DNA from: Candidatus Bathyarchaeia archaeon
GTDB taxonomy: Archaea; Thermoproteota; Bathyarchaeia; Bathyarchaeales; Bathycorpusculaceae
Reading direction: 5' to 3'
NCBI GenBank assembly: GCA_049521795.1
Contig: JBEKOM010000005.1
Span: 32,001 to 96,000, forward strand
DNA length: 64,000 bases
Shown: positions 36,519-47,617 of the stretch, in pieces
Layout of the letters: every line of letters starts with the position of its first letter
Position numbering within the stretch: position 1 is the stretch's first letter
Made by a program: the position numbers and the translations under genes
The notes under the pieces: model-generated
What the model was told of the DNA's origin: nothing
Databases searched by the model: none
The model's input: only the letters and a program-made list of their open reading frames with translations

Positions 36519-36561
36519 GGCCCCAATTGGCACTGACATCCGGAGCGAAAGTGGGATAATG

Positions 36562-36969: not shown

Positions 36970-37194
36970 TCAATAACCCGAGCGTAAAAGCAACACAGCA
37001 ATACTGTTAAGTCTTTTGCGATGCTCTGCCAAAAATAAGCCGCGATGCTTGAGTTCTACCTCAAGAGTTATCTGAAGTTTCTTCATCCTTTTCCATACAG
37101 CTTTTCTCTCTCCATTGAAAAGTTCATTCTCTATTTTGGAATCTGTAAAAGCAGCAAAATCGCTCTGCGAAAAACCAGTAAATGAATCGCCCAT
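36970..37194 (-). pseudogene. Short ORF, probably a truncated N-terminal fragment (FTGF...DF.AF start)
   Basis: 74 aa; the protein-like N-terminus degenerates quickly. Confidence 0.35.
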
Positions 37195-37297
37195 CAGATA
37201 TCCTTACCGCTAATTGTTCTGTATCGATAATTTGATTCTTAAGACTTTAGCTCACAATTGGACTCAAAGAAATATTGAAGAAACAAACGTTGCCAAA

Positions 37298-38218
37298 TCA
37301 TCGGATAGAATCAAGTAGCAAGGAGGTGAAATGATCGTTAACCTTAGAAAAGAAATGGTTCATCTTAGAATATAGAATGGGTATGTCCGGAAAATCTCTC
37401 CCGTAGGTTTTTCTGATTTGTTTCACCCTTTCAGACTCATGTGGTTCCATTTTGATAACCTTCTTTTCAAAAAGGGACAACAGCCCAAAAAAACTCTTTT
37501 CGTTAGCTAAACCTAGATAAATCGGAGCATATTTGTCTCGCAGTGCATACAGCTCATCCTTAGTTTTTTCGGAGTACCTGAACCTGCTAATTTTCAGTTT
37601 ACTCGAAGAACTGGAGTATCCCCAAAATCGTGCGACGATTTCATGTTGGATCAAGTCGTCTCGAACATCTTTCAAATCAGGAATGTACCACGATGTAGCC
37701 TCTGTAAGTATTTTGCAGTATCCATCGTCATCAATGTTGGTGTTTTCAGGATTCAAAAAGAAGTTAATGTGATCATGGAAGCTTCTGAAGGGAATATTTC
37801 TCGTATGCTTTACGCTTTCTTCATCCTTAGAGGTCAGAATTAGAAGTTCCCTTGCAAGTTTGGAAAATTTTTCCATCAAAATATGACCATGCAGGAACCA
37901 ATCCTCCATATCCAAGTTTAGGAGGCACCATTGCTGACTGTATCTTTCAAGAATCTGTGTTTCTTCGGAAGTTGGCGACCGTCTTTCTGCTGCTGGATCA
38001 AGCAACTCTGCCTGAATTTTCCAGTATTGATTCTGAAGTTCGGCATCCTCGAGAATGCGAGTCCATATTTTGGGTAAGAAAACATGGGTCATGCCAAAAG
38101 ACCTGTGAGACATAGTCAAAGTCGCAGTCTTTTCACGACCTAACTGTTTGTAGAGTACTCGAACGATTTCTGATAGTGAATTTTTCTCGTTCAATTCCTC
38201 AAGTTCTTTGGGAAACAA
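37298..38218 (-). CDS. Hypothetical protein with HEPN-like R-x5-H motif
   Basis: DLKDVRDDLIQHE in an all-helical context; AT-rich. Confidence 0.65.
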   Translation of the reverse strand: MFPKELEELNEKNSLSEIVRVLYKQLGREKTATLTMSHRSFGMTHVFLPKIWTRILEDAELQNQYWKIQAELLDPAAERRSPTSEETQILERYSQQWCLLNLDMEDWFLHGHILMEKFSKLARELLILTSKDEESVKHTRNIPFRSFHDHINFFLNPENTNIDDDGYCKILTEATSWYIPDLKDVRDDLIQHEIVARFWGYSSSSSKLKISRFRYSEKTKDELYALRDKYAPIYLGLANEKSFFGLLSLFEKKVIKMEPHESERVKQIRKTYGRDFPDIPILYSKMNHFFSKVNDHFTSLLLDSIR

Positions 38219-38386
38219 ATAACGCCCTAGAACTAAGTACCTCTTTCAATATATAGAACATTACCATTTCCATTTTTTCCAAATGAGTAAGTTAAAATCG
38301 AGAGCTAAAGTTACTTTCAAAATTGTGCAGTTGGGCGGGTTTTTTTTCCAGTTTTAATATTAGATTAAGAAGACTAATTCGTTGTC

Positions 38387-38587
38387 TTGGCGACAAAAAT
38401 GGAAGAAAAGCGAACTGATAAGCAAGCAAGTCCTATACTCGATGTGCCAACACCGAACGATCAGAGGTCCATCGTGTTTAATTCAACAAGTCCAGCGTTC
38501 AAAGCAGCTCTTGACAATCGCAGCACACAACTTAACCCCAACAGTCAGGCCTACCGCTCTTCACGGGGAGGTGGCCGCAAGAAGTAG
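38387..38587 (+). CDS. Small protein with DNRS.QLNPN...Y.SSR motif
   Basis: 66 aa; TTTAATA TATA-like box upstream and a terminator directly downstream. Confidence 0.7.
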   Translation: MATKMEEKRTDKQASPILDVPTPNDQRSIVFNSTSPAFKAALDNRSTQLNPNSQAYRSSRGGGRKK

Positions 38588-38591
38588 GCAT

Positions 38592-38616
38592 AGGAGGCAA
38601 AAAGCCTCCTTTTTTT
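38592..38616 (+). terminator. Hairpin plus U-tract terminator
   Basis: AGGAGGC-AAAAA-GCCTCCT followed by TTTTTT, just after the small ORF stop. Confidence 0.75.
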
Positions 38617-38619
38617 CTA

Positions 38620-40137
38620 TTGTTAGAGGAATCGCTATTGGAAGATGTTAACAAAACTGAACGGAAGGAGATAATGCTTGCAATTATTGAGGCTTTCGAC
38701 AAATACGCAAAAAGATATAATGAAAGGTTTAACAAAGAGTTGGAGTCAAAGACAGCTGAAGAAAAACGTCAGCTGCAAGAAATGTATAAAAAAGTTGATA
38801 TGCTTCTCTCCAAAAGAGCCTTCATTCCAGGTTTTTCCAGATATGTTTTGAGGAACGCTATGAACAATCGAAGGCTGATTCGGCATCGTAAGGTGCTTGT
38901 CAACGCATTTATGATTTCCATGATAAACCGGGAAGGCTTCATGATTAAGGATATCAAAGAAAGAACAGAAGAAAAAACGAGTCTAATGAAAGTGGGTGAA
39001 CCGAACAAAGCTTATACCCGGAGAACTGACCAGCAAATTCTTAATGAACGCTGGCAAGATGCCATCTTCAAACGAGAAAAATCATCGAAGGAAAGCGCAA
39101 TGGACGATAGGTTCAGACCCTCATCAAGTGTTTTTGCCACCGCCAAACCACCTTCTACTCCACAGTCCTACTTAGCTGATGAACAATACGAGGCACTCTT
39201 CAACTACTCTCTTTCAAATGAATATGTTATGGAGTGGTTGACTTACTCAGCCACAATGCAGACAGTTATGCCTGAAGTCTTAACGGATCAGCTTTTGCTT
39301 AGGGAAGAAAGTCTTAAGGTCATAGTGCATGAATTGCAGAGAACCGCCCAAGAGCTAAGGAAAGTCCGAAAAGAATACCGGAAAGAAAAGCTAAGGGAGC
39401 GTGAAAAGCGCGCGAAGTTTTTCCAGTCGGAAGTTGACAATTTTTCGCCGATTTTCTTGGAGTTCTATTTTCACTTTGCCTCCTTGTTGGCGTGGGAATG
39501 GTTCCGTAGTCGTCGACCCGAAAACGTGAAGTCACTACTTGCCCGAGGTTTTCCGCTTCGATTTACATCTACAGATATCGTTAATGCACGAAAGTTGTTG
39601 TTGAGGCAGACCCACTCTGAAGATCATGCTGACTCAATATTGAGAGCAGCATTGCGTGAATATGCTTTTGCCGAAAAATCATTTGCGCGATTTAAGCAGT
39701 GCTTAGAAGCAAGTGGATTGCACGAATTAGATTGTGGGATAGTTCTCGAGAACATAGCGACCGTTCACCGTGACAACAAGAACTACAAACTCATGCGTAT
39801 CTGCTTGAAGACCGCTCTTCAACATTATGAGAAATCTGGAGAGTCCTATCGAGTTTGCGTAGCACTAAAGAATATGGGTGAAGCAGAGTGGTACATGGGT
39901 TACAAGAACAAAGCTCTAAGATACTTTACACAATCAGAAAACAGAAGTAATGCTCTGAACGATCCCATTCAGCATTTCAAGGTCTTAGGAAATTTGGCGG
40001 CCGCTTCCAAGAGAATAGGTGATTTGAAACTTGAACGTAAGTACCTAATGAAATATTTAGCAGCGTGTCCGCAGGAAGATACAGAAACGATGCTTCAAAT
40101 AGAAAACCGGTTGGAACAGCTAGACAAGTACTTCTAA
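38620..40137 (+). CDS. Hypothetical protein with C-terminal TPR repeats
   Basis: VLENIATVHR, ALKNMGEAEW.MG...KAL.YF and VLGNLAAAS..IGD are TPR-like helices. Confidence 0.75.
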   Translation: MLEESLLEDVNKTERKEIMLAIIEAFDKYAKRYNERFNKELESKTAEEKRQLQEMYKKVDMLLSKRAFIPGFSRYVLRNAMNNRRLIRHRKVLVNAFMISMINREGFMIKDIKERTEEKTSLMKVGEPNKAYTRRTDQQILNERWQDAIFKREKSSKESAMDDRFRPSSSVFATAKPPSTPQSYLADEQYEALFNYSLSNEYVMEWLTYSATMQTVMPEVLTDQLLLREESLKVIVHELQRTAQELRKVRKEYRKEKLREREKRAKFFQSEVDNFSPIFLEFYFHFASLLAWEWFRSRRPENVKSLLARGFPLRFTSTDIVNARKLLLRQTHSEDHADSILRAALREYAFAEKSFARFKQCLEASGLHELDCGIVLENIATVHRDNKNYKLMRICLKTALQHYEKSGESYRVCVALKNMGEAEWYMGYKNKALRYFTQSENRSNALNDPIQHFKVLGNLAAASKRIGDLKLERKYLMKYLAACPQEDTETMLQIENRLEQLDKYF

Positions 40138-40346
40138 TTTTGTGTAAACCATAAGAAATCGACTCCGAAGCCGCTTTAGTGACGACAGTTTTTTTTGCTG
40201 CCCCGGTCCATTGAATTAGTTCTAATTCCGATTTTCTGAGAACCGAGAATTAGTGGGTTGCGCACTTTCATGCGGAAGAAACAAATTCACAATCCAGCAC
40301 TAGAACTACTATATGAAAACATTGGTTGATCGTGAGGGGCACGAAA

Positions 40347-43146
40347 ATGGTCAAGTGTACATTGTGTCCCAATAGATTTAATGAAGGAAAAATGTGTCTG
40401 ACATGTGGCAAAACATATTGTAAAAATGAAAACGTTTCAATCTGTCCTTTCGGATGCCAAGGGGAACTTTCTGAATTTAAGGTCTCCGAAGAGAAGCTAG
40501 GCGGATACAAAATAGAATGGCTAACCATTGCAGGCTCAAGAATAGGTCTTATGGATTTCGACGAGGTTCCCTCGTTGTTGCCTGCCGTAATAAAATCATT
40601 GAACGTTGAAATCCCTCGGAAATACAGCTTGCTCTTATTTCCAAATAGGGAAAGCGCCTGCAAAATCATCAATTATTTGCGAAAGAAATCTGGACTTGAA
40701 GACATTGGCTACGATAAGTCTTTTGACAAATCCAGGTATACTCTAATGGAAGATTTTGAAACAAATAAGCAATACATACTTTTGAACCTTGAAGCAACAA
40801 ATCCTCAGCACATGAAATTTCTGATAACATTCTTGGCAACTGCCTTCGCAAAAATTGATGTTTACAGAAAGACAAAACACAAAAAAATGACGGAAGCAAT
40901 ATGCAAGGGTGTTTTCGATTATCAACGAAGACTTGGAATACCCTTCGTTTTATTGGATAAAGAACTTGAGGAAAGAATGAAGTATCTGTCAAATTCTCTG
41001 CCAGGATTTTACTCTGAATATGAGGCATCTATAGGAATGGCGAAATCTTTCCCACAAGAGATTCCAGATTTTCTTCGACAAAAAATGGACCTATTAAATG
41101 CGGCGCTCAATCCGGATTATATCGGGTGGCTTTATGCCTTTTTTGATTTTGTTGGAGCACAAATTCAAATCGCGAGTATCCTGGCTGCATCAGTAGAAGA
41201 AACACATCTTAACTCATACATAAGTCAGCACTTTAACGATTTAGCCGATGAAAACAAACGAAGCCTGACGGGTTTTCAAGACTTATCAAAATGTGCGGAC
41301 ATCATTGTCAAAGATCTATCACAAAAAATGATCTATAGCTCGTATGAAATATACGAAGAAAAAGTATCTCATACCTTTGTTAAGGCATTTGAAGTGATAG
41401 TACCAAGGACTCTGAGAACCTCTGAAATAGACAAGCTATTCGAGGTTAGCCAGACATATGAAGATATGATAGAAAGAAACCTGCCACCCATAGCGCCTCA
41501 TTTAGGAACATTTGCAGAATTCAATACTTTTCTACTTCGGATGTTTCAAAGGGACACCCTTTTTCCTGAAATGAGAATTATCGTGGGACAAATCCTGCAA
41601 GGTAATCTTGTTTTCAAGATATGGAAGCAAAATGATTACGTAGCCTATGTGCAAGGACTCAGTCTAACAAAAAACCTTGCAAACCTAATCGTGGAAAAAC
41701 TTCCGGAAATTAAGAAACGGTTTGGTAAACATGCATCTCATAGCACACTAGGTTATCATGATGCTTGTTTGGCATTGCTTACGTTTGCGCAGTTTGCTTC
41801 AATTATGAATGATGACGAAAACGCAAAGCAATTAATCGAAGAAGCAAAGAGAATAGCTGACCGATATAATGCTTCCTCAGTGAAAATAGTTCACAATTGG
41901 TCGGATTTTACTAAAACACATGATTACTCTAAATTGTTGGAATCGTACAGGTCCTATTCTGCTACAGATATTGCTGAACACTCTTACTTGGAGCCACAAG
42001 CAAAGACAATAATGAATGTTGCGAAGGCGATTTTTGAGATCAAGAATTTTGATTATAATCTTGAAGCGGCGGAAAAGAGCGCCCTTGGTATTGCAACACC
42101 GCACCCTCCCAGAAATATGTCCTTCAGCTATTTTGAAAAAAGCGTTCTTGACAGTTTGGTCTTTTGTCACTTGGTTCGGGTTTTCAAAGGTTTGATGAGT
42201 GCATGTATTGTACAGGGACCGAATGCGGGATTGCCGCTTAAGGAAGCCTTCTTGAATGCTGAAGCTATGTCTACCTATATTTCGACCAAAGACCCTCTGT
42301 TTAGTTTTGTTTACAAAACAGAAGCGGTTTTTTTCCTATTTTCAGAAGACATCGAAAAAACTCGCCGTGTAGGTTCAAAACTACTTGAAATAGCTCATGA
42401 TGCACCGCTACTTGTACATTTTGTTGATAGAATCGAAGAGTGGCTTAAGGAATCCGCAAAACTGAAGTCGAAACGATTCCTTGCAGTGCAAAAGATAGAA
42501 ACAAATGAGTATGACCCATGGGAAAGAATGCTCTCGAAGTTAATTGCTGAAAGAAAAAACGAAGACCTTGAAAAGAGCATTGCTTCGGCAAAGGCTTTTG
42601 TTTTTGTGGAAGGTAAGTGTGACGTTGCAGTACTTGAGCAGTTCACCACGAAACTTTTTCCAGGGCAGCTAATATTTTTCATGGAAATTGAGGGGTATTC
42701 GAATATGTCGAATTACGCTCAAGCAAAAATAGCTATGCGGCTTTCAGTTCCTGTGTACATGATGTTCGACGGAGATTTGTTGAAAGATAATAAGAAGAAG
42801 CGAGCCGTTGAGGAACTAATCAAAAAAGTCGGTTTACCACAAAATCGCATTTTCTATTTGGAAGAAAACAGCATTGAGAATTATTTGCTGATTCCTCATG
42901 CAATAAAGAGTGCATTTCCTCAAAGCGTTATGTCTGAGGAAGACATTGCCGTATTCATAAAAAAGGAACCAGAACAAACGCGACAAGAAACAGGTTTTAA
43001 ACAATCTTTTCTGCAAAATGCAAATAGGTTCATACAAATACAAAAAGGCAGCCCTTATTGCGAGCAAAATCGAAGCAACTGAGGTCAACCAAGAAATAAG
43101 AAACATTCTTCTTAAGACTATATCGGGGAGAGTTAATAGCGATTGA
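40347..43146 (+). CDS. Large Zn-finger/helical protein with C-terminal OLD-type TOPRIM domain; apparent +1 frameshift in the A6 run at 42959-42964
   Basis: N-terminal CxxC..CxxC..C..CxxxC; FVEGKCD, MFDGD (DxD) and SIENYLL; the shifted frame continues KKQVLNNLF...AALIASKI...EIRNIL to TGA 43146. Confidence 0.75.
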
Positions 43147-43452
43147 GGCATATCCATGACTGACGAGACAGTGGCTGCGATCGTTTCTTCAAGAATAAGA
43201 TGTAACGAAGCGGCAAGATTTCAAGGAAAAGACCCAATATTCAGTCCTGTGCTAGAGAATGAGCTTTAGTAATTGAATTTTCAACGTTTCATTGCTATTC
43301 GCGCGCGCGGACTGGCTACAGTTTTTCTGTTCTACGCTTTTGACATATTCCTTATATGTCGCTGTCATCACATTGTTTTTTTGGCGATATGATATGTCAA
43401 TCCGAAATCCTACCAAAAGTAGGGTCTTCGGGAGATATCCCGCTTTTTCGAC

Positions 43453-43560
43453 TAGGCTTGCTATTCTTGGAACCCATGTTTCCCGTTCATCCCTCAGAAA
43501 CTTTGCAAACAAGTAAGCTTCTACGTTAAACAACGTGTCAATGGTTTGCTCGCTGCCGCG
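43453..43560 (-). pseudogene. C-terminal remnant resembling solo/casposon-type Cas1
   Basis: RGSEQTIDTLFNVEAYLFAKFLRDERETWVPRIASL resembles, from memory, the QT.ETL.NEEA.L.AK.LR.E...W.PRI tail of archaeal solo Cas1 proteins. Confidence 0.5.
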
Positions 43561-43597
43561 CGGGCGAGCACCATTTCGTGTGTGTGAACGTGAATGT

Positions 43598-43733
43598 GAA
43601 TCTCTCCTGGGCTACCATGAAACCCAAGTCAGGGTATTGTTCAAACTCTCGGTTCAGTAATTGTGTGGGGGTGGGATCCCCCAAGTTTACCGGAGAAAAA
43701 GCATACTTAATATGTTTGGTGAGAGTTCGAATC
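43598..43733 (+). mobile_element. 136-bp element bounded by GAATC direct repeats; ends are permuted halves of a tRNA-Gln 3' end (attP-like)
   Basis: Left end GAATCTCTCCTGGGCTACCA, right end GAGAGTTCGAATC; circularisation restores GAGAG-TTCGAAT-CTCTC-CTGGGCT-ACCA. Confidence 0.6.
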
Positions 43734-43870
43734 CGCGTGCGGGCCAGAGGCTGTGCCTATAAGAATCTTTTGCGCCCTTTTTCGAGCAATTTGCTGGCAT
43801 TTTGGTAGAATCTAAAAAACGAAGATGTGCGCATGCAAAAAACTTTTATCCAATCAAACACTCTTGAAAA

Positions 43871-44317
43871 GTGATGCCGACAGTTAAGGATTTCATGACG
43901 AAGAATGTTATAACTATTGACGCTAGCAAAACTGTTTTTGAAGCCGTAGACCTAATGTCGCAAAACAACGTAGGCGATTTGGTGGTTATGGATAAAGATA
44001 CGCCTGTAGGGATCGTCACTGAACGGGATTTCGTGAGAAGAGTCTTGGCGGAGAGAAAATCGCCAAACATCAAAGTTTCAGAGGTAATGACCACACCCCT
44101 CAGAGTAATCGATCCAGAAGCTCCACTTAAAGAAGCTGCTAGAAGAATGGTCAGCAAAGGAATCCGACGACTTCCTGTAATAAAGGATAACAAGCTGGTT
44201 GGAATAATAACCGCTACCGACTTCGCTAGACACCTGAGCAAGAAAACCCTCACCGATGGCATACTTGAAGCAATAGGCCGTAGCGACTACCCCGTTCCAG
44301 AAGTTTTCGAAAAATAG
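43871..44317 (+). CDS. CBS-domain pair protein
   Basis: VKDFMT, VGIVTERD, VSEVMTTP, IRRLPV, GIITATD. Confidence 0.92.
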   Translation: MMPTVKDFMTKNVITIDASKTVFEAVDLMSQNNVGDLVVMDKDTPVGIVTERDFVRRVLAERKSPNIKVSEVMTTPLRVIDPEAPLKEAARRMVSKGIRRLPVIKDNKLVGIITATDFARHLSKKTLTDGILEAIGRSDYPVPEVFEK

Positions 44318-44498
44318 CAGAAGCCGTGGGGCAAACAAACCCGAAATACAGTAAACCTTCTAGGGTAGAAGCTCAATTCTCGCTCATCACCCCAAAATAC
44401 CATCATCCACGGCTAATGGACAGAGTACGCACATACTGTAAAATGAAATCTTGGCAAGTCTTCTCTGATCTTCGCCATTGTGGCTAGGCTAAGTATGT

Positions 44499-46478
44499 TC
44501 AAGCCCGAATCAGTACTGGGAGCAGAAGCAGAGCGGTCATGCCCAGAAGCTTCATGAATATGAGAACGGAGGGGCCTGCAACGTCCTTCAGCGGGTCTCC
44601 TACAGTATCACCAATTATTGTTGCCTTATGAGTATCCGATTTCTTGCCCCCATACAGCCCACTTTCGACCAACTTCTTGGCATTGTCCAGCAGGGCGCCT
44701 GTATTGTTAAAGAAGAAGCCTAGCATGGCGGCGGAAGCCGTAGCCCCGATGAGCAGCATTCCTAACTCGGTCGGACCAAATAACAGACCCACAGCGATTG
44801 GAGTTGCTATGGCAATGAGCCCCGGCAGCACCATTTTGCTGAGCGCATTCTTGGTTGCGATATCAATACATCTGGCATAATCAGGAGCAACTTTCCCCTC
44901 TTTGAGCCCTATGATCTCCTTGAACTGCCGCCTCACTTCATCAACCATTTTGAAAGCCCCATCGGAAGTCGCCCTTATCGTCAGAGAGGCCAATGGCAAA
45001 GGCAAGACTACACCTAGGAACAGTGCAGCGATGGGGTATGGCGTTCCAAGCGAAATGACAGAGATTTTAGCCGTTGCGAAATACGTTGCGAAAATCAAAA
45101 AAGACGTAACCGTGCCTGATGCCATGGCATAGCCCTTGGTTGCAGCCTTCATAGTGTTTCCGACAGCATCCAGAGAATTTAACGTCTCAGATGCTTGCCC
45201 TGAGATTCCAGACATTTCGGCTATTCCCGCAGCATTATCGGTTATTGGACCGAACGTATCAGAAGCCATAATAAACGCGATAGCGAAGTCCGTGCCAATG
45301 TTTGTTATGACTAGCCCGTAGAGAGATTGACCAGTTACCATGAAAGATAGCACTACGGCAGCCAAAACTGCAATCATCGGGAACAATGGAGTTGCCAGTC
45401 CAGTCGATATGCCAGTTATCAGGTTTATTGCGGGGCCTGCTTGCGAGGATTCAGCGACATGATGTACAGGTCCACGCTCCAGACCGGTGTAGTATAGTGT
45501 ACCTAGGACACAAACGAGCACGGCTGCAAACCCAAGCAAACCCGCAAAGAATAGTGATACATCATTCATAAACAGCGTAGACAAAAAGAACAAGCCAATC
45601 GAGCTAAGAACTGTCGTAACCATGAGACCGACAACCAAAGATCCTGTTGCGCTAATCCGCTTCCAACGTCTAACCAGCGATATCCCAAACATGGAGGCCA
45701 GAACACCGACAGCTTCGAGTATAAATGGAAACACTACACCGTTTGTGCCGTATCTCGAAATGAAGAGAACGCCCATCAACATACCAGTTATTATGTCATC
45801 ACTGAAAGTCTGGAACAAATCTGAACCTCGCCCTGCACAATCGCCCACGTTGTCGCCAACCAAATCGGCGACCACAGCCGGATTTCTTGGGTCGTCCTCA
45901 GGGATCTCCATTTCGATCTTACCCACCAAATCGGCCCCAATGTCAGCTGACTTTGTATATATGCCACCTCCGATTTGCGCAAACAATGCCGCTAGGCTTG
46001 CTCCAAATCCAAATCCAACAAGCGCTGGAATATCATTCAAGGCTACTCGCAATAGGAACAACGAAACCAGACTTATCCCTGGAACTGCCAGACCCATAAC
46101 TGCACCTCCCAAAAAGCCTGTTCTCAGAGTTGCCCCAGGTGAACGCGTAGCGGCACTTGCGGTTCTTACGTTGGCTCTAACGGCGACGTTCATGCCAACG
46201 TACCCCGCGAATAGGGAGAGAAGGACTCCGCACAAGAAAGCCAATGAAGTAGTCCAATTGAAAAGAAAGAGAATTATTAAGGCCAGCCAGGGAATGACAA
46301 GAATGATTGTCCCCAATTGTCTCTTGATGTAAGCGCTTGTTCCTATCACAATATACCTGCTCACCTCTTGCATACGAGCGGTACCAGAATCACGTTTGAG
46401 AATCCAACGAGTGATATACGACGCCACCAAAATGGCAATCATCCCAACCACGAAAGCAAACAGAAGTGGATCTGCCAT
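44499..46478 (-). CDS. hppA: Membrane H+-translocating pyrophosphatase, K+-independent type
   Basis: GGIYTKSADIGADLVGK, IPEDDPRNP, GDNVGD, GPITDNAAG, GNTMKA, GDTVGDPLKD. Confidence 0.95.
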   Translation of the reverse strand: MADPLLFAFVVGMIAILVASYITRWILKRDSGTARMQEVSRYIVIGTSAYIKRQLGTIILVIPWLALIILFLFNWTTSLAFLCGVLLSLFAGYVGMNVAVRANVRTASAATRSPGATLRTGFLGGAVMGLAVPGISLVSLFLLRVALNDIPALVGFGFGASLAALFAQIGGGIYTKSADIGADLVGKIEMEIPEDDPRNPAVVADLVGDNVGDCAGRGSDLFQTFSDDIITGMLMGVLFISRYGTNGVVFPFILEAVGVLASMFGISLVRRWKRISATGSLVVGLMVTTVLSSIGLFFLSTLFMNDVSLFFAGLLGFAAVLVCVLGTLYYTGLERGPVHHVAESSQAGPAINLITGISTGLATPLFPMIAVLAAVVLSFMVTGQSLYGLVITNIGTDFAIAFIMASDTFGPITDNAAGIAEMSGISGQASETLNSLDAVGNTMKAATKGYAMASGTVTSFLIFATYFATAKISVISLGTPYPIAALFLGVVLPLPLASLTIRATSDGAFKMVDEVRRQFKEIIGLKEGKVAPDYARCIDIATKNALSKMVLPGLIAIATPIAVGLLFGPTELGMLLIGATASAAMLGFFFNNTGALLDNAKKLVESGLYGGKKSDTHKATIIGDTVGDPLKDVAGPSVLIFMKLLGMTALLLLPVLIRA

Positions 46479-46822
46479 AGCAATTCCTCACACTTTCTCG
46501 TTTTGCACCTTAATGATGTCTGGCATAACAGTTGGTCGCGTCTTCTTTCCGTTTCATACGGTAGCCTTGCCCCTTGCCTAGGAACAGGAGCTTCTTACTT
46601 GATAAGGCTGACCCTGAATCGACCGTACAACATGTTGACCCTTTGGATCATTTTTGACCTAGTGACTTTTTTTGAAGAATGCTTCGGCCCTTTGGGTGTA
46701 TCCAGATTGTAGGGGCTTTCATTCTAAGTTCATCACTGGTTCTGTTCATATGAAGAGTACGCGTGCCACCACGAGGTCTAGACTTTTGCCAGCATAAGTG
46801 ACTTATGGTTGGACCAAAAATT

Positions 46823-46901
46823 TGGTGCGGTCGCCGGGATTTGAACCCGGGATCACAAGCTTGGAGGGCTTGTGTCCTAAACCAGACTAGACCACGACCG
46901 C
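46823..46901 (-). tRNA. tRNA-Gly(TCC), CCA encoded, atypical C33
   Basis: GCGGTCG...CGACCGC-ACCA; CAAGC-CCTCCAA-GCTTG anticodon arm; CCGGG-TTCAAAT-CCCGG T arm. Confidence 0.93.
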
Positions 46902-46951: not shown

Positions 46952-47617
46952 TCATTCCCTGCGCGGCTTTTCATCTGGTTTGAACAGTTTTTTCTCGTAC
47001 TTGGGTCTCGGCTTGAAACTTCCATGAAGGGCAGGCATGGATGTTCGTTGCCTTTCGAGATTCTTGATTCGAGCGTACAGCTTCGAAACCTTAGTCTTGG
47101 AAGGTATCTTGGACCGGGGAATCTTCACGTGAACCGGGGTGAATGGTTTCTTGATTTCAGCGAATGCACGTTTCCTTCTGGTCTGCACTTCTTTCACTTT
47201 TCTGAAGAGAACGTAACCCTCTTTCAGATTGACTTCCCGGACTTCCCATCCGGCGTCTAGCCAACCGTGAGCGTGGGGACTGCTCTGCGAGTTGTCCCAC
47301 CATTTCTCGGTGCGGTACGCGCTCATCGGCAGGTTCTCGCCAATTGTGCCGTCAATTCGTGCAAAACTGAGCTTGACGCTTCCGGTGAAGGATCCTCTGA
47401 ACCGCAGGTAGCCCGTAAGACCAGCATACTTGGAAGCGGTCGTTCGCGAGACAACTCTTCTTGCACAGTTCAGACAGAACAATCTGGTTGGGTCACCTGT
47501 CACGACGTCAGGGATCATGCAGTCCCTGCAGTAAAGCCGTCCGCACCTCTCGCACCGCCTGAGATAGCTTGTTCGAAGCACTCTCTTGCAGATTCCGCAT
47601 TCGTCCCTCAACGGCAT
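46952..47617 (-). CDS. Zn-finger protein with KY..L..YL/WW.N domain and basic tail
   Basis: Four CxxC pairs, then KYAGLTGYL...LSF..I...IG..LP.SAY....WWDN....HA.GWLDAGWEV. Confidence 0.75.
   Translation of the reverse strand: MPLRDECGICKRVLRTSYLRRCERCGRLYCRDCMIPDVVTGDPTRLFCLNCARRVVSRTTASKYAGLTGYLRFRGSFTGSVKLSFARIDGTIGENLPMSAYRTEKWWDNSQSSPHAHGWLDAGWEVREVNLKEGYVLFRKVKEVQTRRKRAFAEIKKPFTPVHVKIPRSKIPSKTKVSKLYARIKNLERQRTSMPALHGSFKPRPKYEKKLFKPDEKPRRE

Follow-up and report, generated by a model that had tools for sequence, protein, structure and literature searches.

The stretch of archaeal DNA analysed here (64,000 nucleotides, hereafter the window) carries two co-oriented open reading frames (ORFs), termed gene A and gene B, which occupy positions 38620-43146 of the plus strand and are separated by 209 bp. 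Gene B (40347..43146, +), which has an ATG start at the place where its homologs begin with M[VI]KC, is predicted to encode a zinc finger, a conserved alpha/beta domain, a long solenoid resembling tetratricopeptide repeat (TPR) proteins, and a nuclease core of the OLD-type TOPRIM fold. In all four recognised OLD classes, to our knowledge, the TOPRIM goes together with an ABC ATPase, the presumed sensor of infection and gate of the nuclease. We moderately favour the explanation that gene B is a frameshifted member of a family of single-protein, ATPase-independent sensor-nucleases that serve in defence, and that gene A is unrelated to it. To judge by the sequences recovered, the B family is a rare, unnamed and metagenomic group of four-module single chains of ~900-950 amino acids (aa), and the source names of its members are either 'hypothetical protein' or missing.

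The nuclease assignment of gene B comes from residues 750-872 (42594..42962, +), where an OLD-type TOPRIM core carries the motifs VEGKCD (754-759), DGD (808-810) and NSIENY (841-846). Within it, E755 is encoded at 42609-42611, D808 and D810 at 42768-42776, and the S842-x-E844 motif ends at 42876-42878. The Pfam family OLD-like_TOPRIM (PF20469) matches residues 755-817 with an E-value of 2.7e-5 (25.0 bits versus a cut-off of 23.2). In PADLOC the best match is AriB (E 1.6e-5), covering only model positions 2-108 of 236, and the AriAB match is likewise partial; the homologs P0004 and P0029 match AriB with E-values of 1.2e-10 and 1.3e-8, and the sole GajA match is to the TOPRIM of one distant B homolog (E 5.8e-4). 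Searches of gene B against NCBIfam returned nothing, and those against PHROGs nothing meaningful.

Conservation was counted over the 38 TOPRIM-bearing rows of a family alignment (A2, described below). The residues E755, G756, D808 and E844 are present in every row, D810 in 36 and K885 in 32, while position 759 is occupied by D in 34 rows and by E in the other 4. For the Burkholderia pseudomallei OLD protein, PMC6755086 reports a set comprising E400, E404, D455, D457, T506-x-E508 and K562, in which the acidic residues bind two Mg2+ ions and the Lys is required for processive cleavage; both nicking and cleavage suffer when the helical subdomain is truncated. On order and spacing alone, we infer that columns E755, D759, D808, D810, S842-x-E844 and K885 of the B family correspond to this metal-binding and Lys set. 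The aligned sequences show an OLD-type TOPRIM with what is predicted to be the full two-metal motif set (E, D/E, DxD, SxE and a downstream Lys). When the Protein Data Bank (PDB) was searched by sequence, a 44-sequence family profile gave weak matches to the C-terminal part of class 2 OLD proteins (6njv and 6nk8, E 0.01-0.05), and a 7-sequence profile of gene B gave nothing relevant.

The best 150 matches of an exhaustive profile search with gene B (described below) also include many classical OLD proteins of ~570-640 aa, which match the profile over positions ~742-922 only (their last ~180 residues), with E-values from 1e-54 to 1e-17. Pfam finds an AAA_15/AAA_21 ABC ATPase in all ten of the classical relatives scanned and PF20469 in eight of them, and each of the seven submitted to PADLOC matches a GajA, Old, AriA or AriAB model. 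Given these ATPases and model matches, the TOPRIM of gene B groups with the classical, ATPase-bearing OLD nucleases.

What precedes the TOPRIM is of a different kind. An AlphaFold2 model of the gene B protein built from the 44-sequence alignment (mean predicted local distance difference test score, pLDDT, 85.6; predicted template modelling score 0.74) places a beta-rich segment at residues 1-69, an alpha/beta unit extending to ~150, unbroken helices at 153-745, and the beta-alpha-beta TOPRIM from 750 onward. Residues 1-47 (40347..40487, +) are modelled as a cross-brace, RING/ZZ-like zinc finger with Cys at positions 4, 7, 17, 20, 25, 33 and 37. The last five of these show no substitution in any row that has a residue in the column, namely in 30-31 of the 38 TOPRIM rows and in all six rows that carry an alternative effector (see below); the remaining 7-8 TOPRIM rows are truncated at the N-terminus and have gaps there. 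When residues 1-200 were folded separately (AlphaFold2, pLDDT 91.7), residues 1-46 aligned by VIA-align with the ZZ fingers of Nbr1 (7dd9, Z 5.5, root mean square deviation 2.0 Å, 45 residues aligned) and p62 (5yp8, Z 4.5), and the 44-sequence profile gives weak RING-finger matches in the PDB (E 0.07-0.95).

The next domain, at residues 48-150 (40488..40796, +), has an alpha/beta fold in the AlphaFold2 model and conserves W58, G67, S129-R-Y131 and N147. The best structural rows for residues 44-178 are M30, lethal-factor-like, collagenase and M1 peptidase domains, with Z scores of 7.5-5 that lie in the noise range. A zincin-like metallopeptidase was considered for this domain and rejected in view of those scores, the lack of an HExxH motif in residues 1-200 and the lack of conserved His or Glu columns.

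Residues 153-745 (40803..42581, +) are all-alpha in the predicted secondary structure and form a TPR-like solenoid, presumed to be the sensor or regulatory module. Foldseek searches of the PDB with the whole and N-terminal models returned no row at E<=1e-3, and for the whole model the best rows are TPR or solenoid proteins (such as SPY, OGT and MalT domain III). Against 48,161 chains, VIA-align aligned residues ~190/360-745 to the TPR domains of LGN (4wng, Z 13.1), NprR (4gpk, Z 12.3), Rap (6t3h, Z 12.3) and MalT domain III (1hz4, Z 11.1). The best matches of residues ~360-745 are to RRNPP proteins of the Rap-NprR type and to MalT domain III, which bind peptides or ligands within the solenoid. 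The scores fall in a range that is common for helical repeats, and the gene B protein differs from these proteins in having no sequence similarity to them and no helix-turn-helix or phosphatase output.

An ATPase was sought throughout. The Walker A pattern [AG]xxxxGK[ST] occurs in none of the 44 aligned family members, no ATPase family was found in gene B by Pfam, NCBIfam or PADLOC, and none is among the listed structural rows; on the strength of the model, we read the middle region as something other than an ATPase. Nearby, no AAA_15 or AAA_21 match was found among the 25 window ORFs scanned, and no AriA-like gene, helicase or ATPase among the neighbouring ORFs scanned. Much of this agrees with the original prediction, which a model had made from the sequence of the window alone: the absence of a Walker A motif and the Cys-rich zinc finger at the N-terminus both held, the latter with seven Cys and a ZZ-like model. 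Its ~650 aa of helical, partly TPR-like sequence were borne out for the all-helical residues 153-745 and need correction at residues 48-150, which are alpha/beta. It had also named a divergent ATPase in the middle region as one outcome that would overturn it, and AlphaFold2 and Foldseek parsing returned an all-alpha, TPR/solenoid-like region instead.

Homologs with this architecture are scarce. A word-indexed search with gene B found seven proteins, including the window's own, and the exhaustive profile search extended this to 350 representatives with E<=1e-3, of which 97 reach E<=1e-30. Among the best 150 of these 350, about 31 representatives (855-950 aa, aligned from profile positions <100 to >890) are full-length, so that the search for proteins of the same architecture proposed in the original prediction did recover a family. 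Alignment A2 comprises 44 of the best 150, chosen as the longer, near-full-length sequences plus six members with an alternative effector; fragments were left out. Also among the best 150 are three proteins of 700-741 aa that consist of the N-terminal module only (P0058, P0060 and P0074) and four of 190-216 aa that consist of the TOPRIM module only (P0085, P0089, P0090 and P0104). These may be natural split forms, or genes cut by the ends of contigs.

The six alternative-effector members among the best 150 (P0072, P0123, P0143, P0145, P0158 and P0169; 889-962 aa) match the profile over positions ~2-735 only and then continue into a different C-terminus of ~170 residues. This C-terminus has an invariant D and DVK in all four of the aligned sequences, and the remaining two show D...E-I-K, by eye only. 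Families of the PD-(D/E)xK type were matched in one of the four alternative C-termini scanned, in each case below the cut-off (NERD, E 6.7e-4; DUF234, 0.0087; UPF0102, 0.043), and the Atlas leads are NERD (0.91) and Mrr_cat (0.88). A midpoint-rooted FastTree phylogeny computed from 735 reference columns of the N-terminal region groups the six in a single clade, with TOPRIM-bearing branches around it. As read from these sequences, the B family has undergone effector swapping, in which the N-terminal ~735 residues were apparently kept and the nuclease was exchanged.

Readable B homologs reside in two metagenome loci, L001 (49% identity) and L002 (38% identity). The gene order in L002 is a HEPN protein of the ApeA type (PDC-S58, E 3.6e-137), a transposase fragment, the B homolog, a 192-aa ORF, a STAND ATPase-TPR protein, HmaC and HmaB (E 1e-150 or better), and from these gene annotations L002 is judged to be a defence island. 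The 192-aa ORF (P0024, L002 12767-13345, +) begins 4 bp after the B homolog and is PD-(D/E)xK-like by eye (...HADL...IEIK...); it has no family match and no counterpart in the window. The STAND/Avs-like protein (L002 13460-16030, +) is 856 aa long, has an N-terminal P-loop (GERASGKTS) ATPase and ~8 C-terminal TPRs, and adjoins HmaC and HmaB.

The host genome of gene B is that of an archaeon (2.44 Mb, 98.75% complete), the window itself holds genes for aEF-2, RtcB, archease and an Mpt_N-type dehydrogenase, and the sequencing runs containing this DNA are labelled as peat or wetland metagenomes. Gene B was not found in 40 relatives (10 share the genus, 14 the family and 16 the order), in which just three matches of 39-76 positions were seen (E ~1e-4). 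It was not found at E<=1e-15 in 400 genomes of the phylum, and a pattern scan of species-representative genomes recovered the window's own genome alone. Viral contigs likewise gave no relative of gene B, nor of gene A, and tblastn with residues 1-738 of gene B gave no match in plasmid or phage records.

Within the window, genes A and B lie in a variable region (37030..46818) whose right edge is a tRNA-Gly(TCC) gene (46823-46901, -). The G+C fraction of the part at 38-44 kb is 0.385-0.417, versus ~0.49 in the flanks. By blastn against same-genus genomes, synteny extends to window position 36523 in genome G002 or 37029 in genome G001 and returns at 46819 in both. Between those flanks there are ~660 bp in G002, and 8.5 kb with NosD- and PKD-domain genes in G001. 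No integrase or att-like direct repeats were found around the island, where there are short, chance-level repeats only. Gene B thus has an accessory, defence-like ecology, comprising its sporadic distribution, its location in a variable, low-G+C region beside a tRNA gene, and the island of L002.

The swapped C-terminal nuclease and the defence island at one homolog fit a sensor-fused effector, and the original prediction of a sensor-fused TOPRIM nuclease gains support from both. We regard it as rather probable that the B family acts as an immune sensor-nuclease. Somewhat more doubtful, and held here only as a leaning short of even confidence, is the wider proposal that these are single-chain immune sensors working without nucleoside triphosphates, in which a viral protein or peptide would be recognised directly by zinc finger, novel alpha/beta domain and solenoid together, which would then unleash an interchangeable nuclease of the TOPRIM or PD-(D/E)xK type. 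The scheme of activation that follows is tentative. The zinc finger, alpha/beta domain and solenoid would form a sensor that holds the nuclease inactive; this sensor would bind a protein or peptide derived from the virus; binding would release or oligomerise the nuclease; and the nuclease would cut DNA or tRNA, so that the infected cell or the virus is stopped.

The copy of gene B in the window is predicted to be impaired. Frame 0 runs from 40347 to 43082 (911 aa), and its last ~40 residues resemble nothing. At ~residue 873 the frame is shifted, and the conserved C-terminal ~60 residues continue in the +1 frame (42961..43146, +), where they hold the helical subdomain and, within it, the K885 column described above. 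The 61 residues of this +1-frame tail are 85% identical to residues 880-940 of P0004 (E 3e-33), which is the closest homolog of gene B at 82% identity overall, the next closest having 57%. Six homologs (921-940 aa) are uninterrupted across this point in the alignment. The likely lesion is one extra A in an A6 homopolymer (42959..42964, +), given that one A fewer would yield FIKRNQNKRD, versus FIKENQNKRD in P0004. The original prediction of a protein of ~930 aa ending in an OLD-type TOPRIM therefore stands with respect to the motifs and the PF20469 match, and fails in treating gene B as one ORF, the stop at 43082 and the frameshift in the A6 tract having been missed.

The frameshift is likely to be real, to judge from the reads assembled across it: a Logan contig of run X1, which is possibly the source of this DNA, is identical over the A6 site at a depth of ~25. 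The coverage of the independent runs X2-X4 lies outside 42959-42964, with the contigs of X2 stopping at 42787 and resuming at 43021, and the contig of X3 stopping at 42945. Because the shift displaces the Lys and the helical subdomain, the window copy is predicted to be crippled, and it is probably an inactive pseudogene. Programmed frameshifting was considered and is thought to be unlikely. A AAA AAG is a pattern for -1 slippage, the tail requires a +1 shift, and a run of six A's is short for slippage during transcription.

Gene A (38674..40137, +) is best read from an ATG preceded by a GGAGG-like site, the likelier start, which gives 487 aa; from a TTG at 38620 it would have 505 aa. The Pfam family TPR_12 matches residues 374-441 (E 1.6e-8, 35.1 bits versus a cut-off of 30.1), and the co-oriented upstream TPR gene of the original prediction is thereby confirmed. 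Its N-terminal ~370 aa have no family match in Pfam, and the TPRs are confined to the C-terminus; the Atlas neighbours of gene A are TPR clusters with scores <=0.83, taken as a lead only. The gene A family is rare, with 14 homologs (at 83-84% and 58% identity among them, and another at 73% on a 50-kb contig) and two weak matches among 400 genomes of the class. The 209-bp gap that separates gene A from gene B contains, on direct reading, a T8 tract (40189..40196, +) that may serve as an archaeal oligo-T terminator, in which case genes A and B would be separate transcription units.

In the original prediction, genes A and B had been proposed as a two-gene defence system; on such a reading, gene A would sense or regulate gene B. 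The two are co-oriented neighbours in the same low-G+C island, the TPR-bearing protein of L002 lies two genes downstream of its B homolog, and identities among gene A homologs parallel those of the closest B homologs. We nevertheless consider such a system very unlikely, and the co-occurrence that had been suggested as its check was not found at the loci and contig sizes compared. Neither a BLASTP comparison with the upstream ORFs nor an all-frame tblastn search revealed a gene A relative at L001 or L002, the best tblastn match (E 1.8) falling on the TPRs of the STAND protein, which is unrelated to gene A. Of the 14 gene A homologs, none resides on a contig of a size matching those of the six close and 17 further B entries, and no contig common to the two families was found as judged from these sizes. 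The contigs of gene A homologs span 2.1-233 kb (including 9.9, 11, 11.5, 50 and 233 kb), and no close B homolog is assigned to the 50-kb contig, though it is within reach of the search. Linkage was read as DNA only at L001 and L002, and the contigs of P0004 and P0005 (7.0 and 6.6 kb) are not among them. The T8 tract also argues against a joint unit. From these comparisons gene A appears to be a neighbour of gene B and an unrelated accessory TPR protein, with a partnership undemonstrated.

Three other explanations concern gene B itself. If its middle region were a very divergent ABC ATPase, gene B would be an ordinary OLD nuclease, as might be expected from a TOPRIM that is closest to ATPase-bearing OLD proteins. 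The missing Walker A motif and ATPase families stand against this, as do the confident all-alpha model of residues 153-745, for which only TPR/solenoid chains are among the listed matches, and the alignment of the classical relatives over their last ~180 residues alone, and we consider it exceedingly improbable. It is unlikely that the family is non-immune and serves in repair, processing, the cell cycle or a mobile element, with its TPR scaffold docking on a cellular partner. There is some precedent, in that Cran1, an archaeal protein of the OLD family, reportedly functions in progression of the cell cycle and not in defence (PMC12796447). In addition, TPR scaffolds are multi-purpose, and no known defence gene is among the scanned ORFs of the island. 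However, a gene found in none of 40 relatives and none of 400 phylum genomes is too sporadic for housekeeping, and a frameshifted copy is tolerated here. Conflict systems typically show such a replacement of one nuclease fold, here the TOPRIM, by another; the B homolog of L002 sits in a defence island; and the viral contigs, phage records and plasmids searched gave no member of the family. Gene B might finally be one component of a multi-gene system with varying partners such as P0024, given that this ORF follows 4 bp after B in L002 and that many OLD-type TOPRIM effectors have separate partners (AriA, GajB or a retron reverse transcriptase). This we rate as quite improbable: only short ORFs follow gene B in the window, and the upstream ORFs of L001 differ from the neighbours in L002, these being the two loci read.

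A single-protein, ATPase-independent sensor-nuclease remains the explanation that we prefer, and several points weigh against it. The defence context comes from one locus (L002). At L001, which breaks off within its B homolog, the upstream side holds two ORFs that lack annotation. PADLOC gave no match on five neighbouring ORFs of the window, and the corresponding hotspot of G001 holds surface-protein genes, so that the site by itself does not qualify as a defence island. Weakly supported as well is the PD-(D/E)xK-like call for the alternative effector, which rests on the sub-threshold matches and a motif rather than on a fold. In the model, residues 48-150 have a fold without an assignment (zincin-like domains at Z <=7.5 only), and the solenoid scores of Z 10-13 lie where helical repeats commonly match, which tempers the TPR assignment. 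The A6 site is covered by the probable source run alone, and hence the frameshift may be a sequencing or assembly error. Lastly, the parallel between gene A homologs (83-84% and 58% identity) and the closest B homologs (82% and 57%) means that relatives may carry both genes, with any linkage limited to close kin.

With these caveats in mind, gene B can be compared with known systems. It has in common with OLD classes 1-4 (P2 Old, GajA, retron-associated OLD and AriA/AriB) the TOPRIM with its invariant Glu, Gly and DxD and, to judge by order and spacing, probably the further motif residues and the Lys of the helical subdomain that follows. It differs from them in having no ABC ATPase either in cis or among the scanned neighbours, the place of which is taken by a zinc finger, an alpha/beta domain and a TPR-like solenoid that together make up ~745 residues. 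Without the defining ATPase, the B family falls outside these four classes. The AriB protein of PARIS is also an ATPase-less chain with an OLD-type TOPRIM (DUF4435), and it is reported to be held inactive by its sensor and released on infection (PMC11464382, PMC10802264). AriB is ~35 kDa and needs a separate AriA ATPase scaffold, in contrast to gene B, in which the presumed sensor belongs to the same chain and is of a non-ATPase kind. Gabija joins an ATPase-TOPRIM protein, GajA, with the adjacent UvrD-like helicase GajB, and neither a helicase nor an ATPase is present in gene B or its scanned neighbours. In Retron-Eco2 a Toprim effector is reported to be fused directly to a reverse transcriptase, a non-ATPase module for sensing or regulation (PMC12405507). 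That enzyme works with multicopy single-stranded DNA, in contrast to gene B, at which no reverse transcriptase signal (Pfam) or non-coding RNA signal (Rfam) was found. The lack of an AriA, GajB or reverse transcriptase partner indicates that gene B is not PARIS, Gabija or a retron, and AriB and the Retron-Eco2 fusion are precedents for control of an OLD-type TOPRIM without an ATPase in the same chain. As to substrates, GajA is reported to cut DNA (PMC8136825), and AriB (PMC11464382) and P2 Old (10.64898/2026.07.10.737580) to cut tRNA.

The Avs/STAND proteins and helical-repeat sensors such as DSR2 combine a repeat or solenoid sensor with an exchangeable effector, and their members swap nuclease types. 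Gene B resembles them in logic only, with no homology detected: it has no STAND NTPase (NACHT, NB-ARC or AAA), P-loop or SIR2 domain, and its zinc finger and alpha/beta domain are not known from those families. The architecture, which the original prediction had not recognised as described, is in none of the libraries searched (Pfam, NCBIfam, PADLOC 2.0 and PHROGs), PADLOC 2.0 having no full-length model of it. No description of a zinc-finger/TPR/TOPRIM protein was found in the literature searched in full text, including the passages on TOPRIM candidates in 10.1101/2024.01.29.577857, whose 145 untested candidates might include the family.

If this reading is correct, no ABC ATPase is needed to control an OLD TOPRIM effector. 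The same catalytic core would be placed under another gate, made of a zinc finger and a TPR-like solenoid, and the same gate would also occur on a second, unrelated nuclease, which amounts to a natural experiment on OLD control. Few archaeal defence systems have been listed so far, and the family would supply a further, compact candidate that consists of a single gene. Given that it is small and metagenomic and that the window copy is broken, its practical value lies in the intact homologs.

Several minor features surround the two genes. Upstream of gene A, a 62-aa ORF (38400-38588, +) ends in ...NPNSQAYRSSRGGGRKK, is followed by a GC hairpin and T-run (~38590-38618), and has no match in Pfam, PADLOC or PHROGs. 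A divergent 306-aa ORF (37298-38218) was considered as a partner of gene A or gene B and rejected, as none of its 30 homologs is on a contig of matching size; by that test it is a third independent family. Directly downstream of gene B, a short ORF (43252-43611, -) has an N-terminal motif of the approximate form ...TI(D/E)TL.NxEAYLFAKFLRxERETWVPRI... that recurs at four other sites in the genome (G000 C4:111094-111219, C11:103186-103404, C10:62006-62122 and C7:65550-65645), three of which contain stops. In run X1, a 35-nucleotide piece of it (43321-43355) is on contigs of ~170x depth, versus ~25x for its surroundings. This ORF appears to belong to a small repeated gene family or to be a degenerate element. 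A tRNA-like stretch suspected near 43.7 kb was called by neither ARAGORN nor Rfam.

Further downstream, genes for a CBS-domain protein and a membrane H+-pyrophosphatase (43871-46478) occupy part of the segment that two same-genus genomes lack between the corresponding flanks. Pieces of them are found at contig ends elsewhere in G002, and G001 has only pieces of ~70% identity, at a distance of ~0.8 Mb from the DAO gene. This hotspot may therefore also carry housekeeping-like cargo, or the region may have been rearranged. Just past the tRNA-Gly gene, at the conserved edge of the hotspot, is a gene for a 221-aa DUF7662 protein (46952-47617, -).

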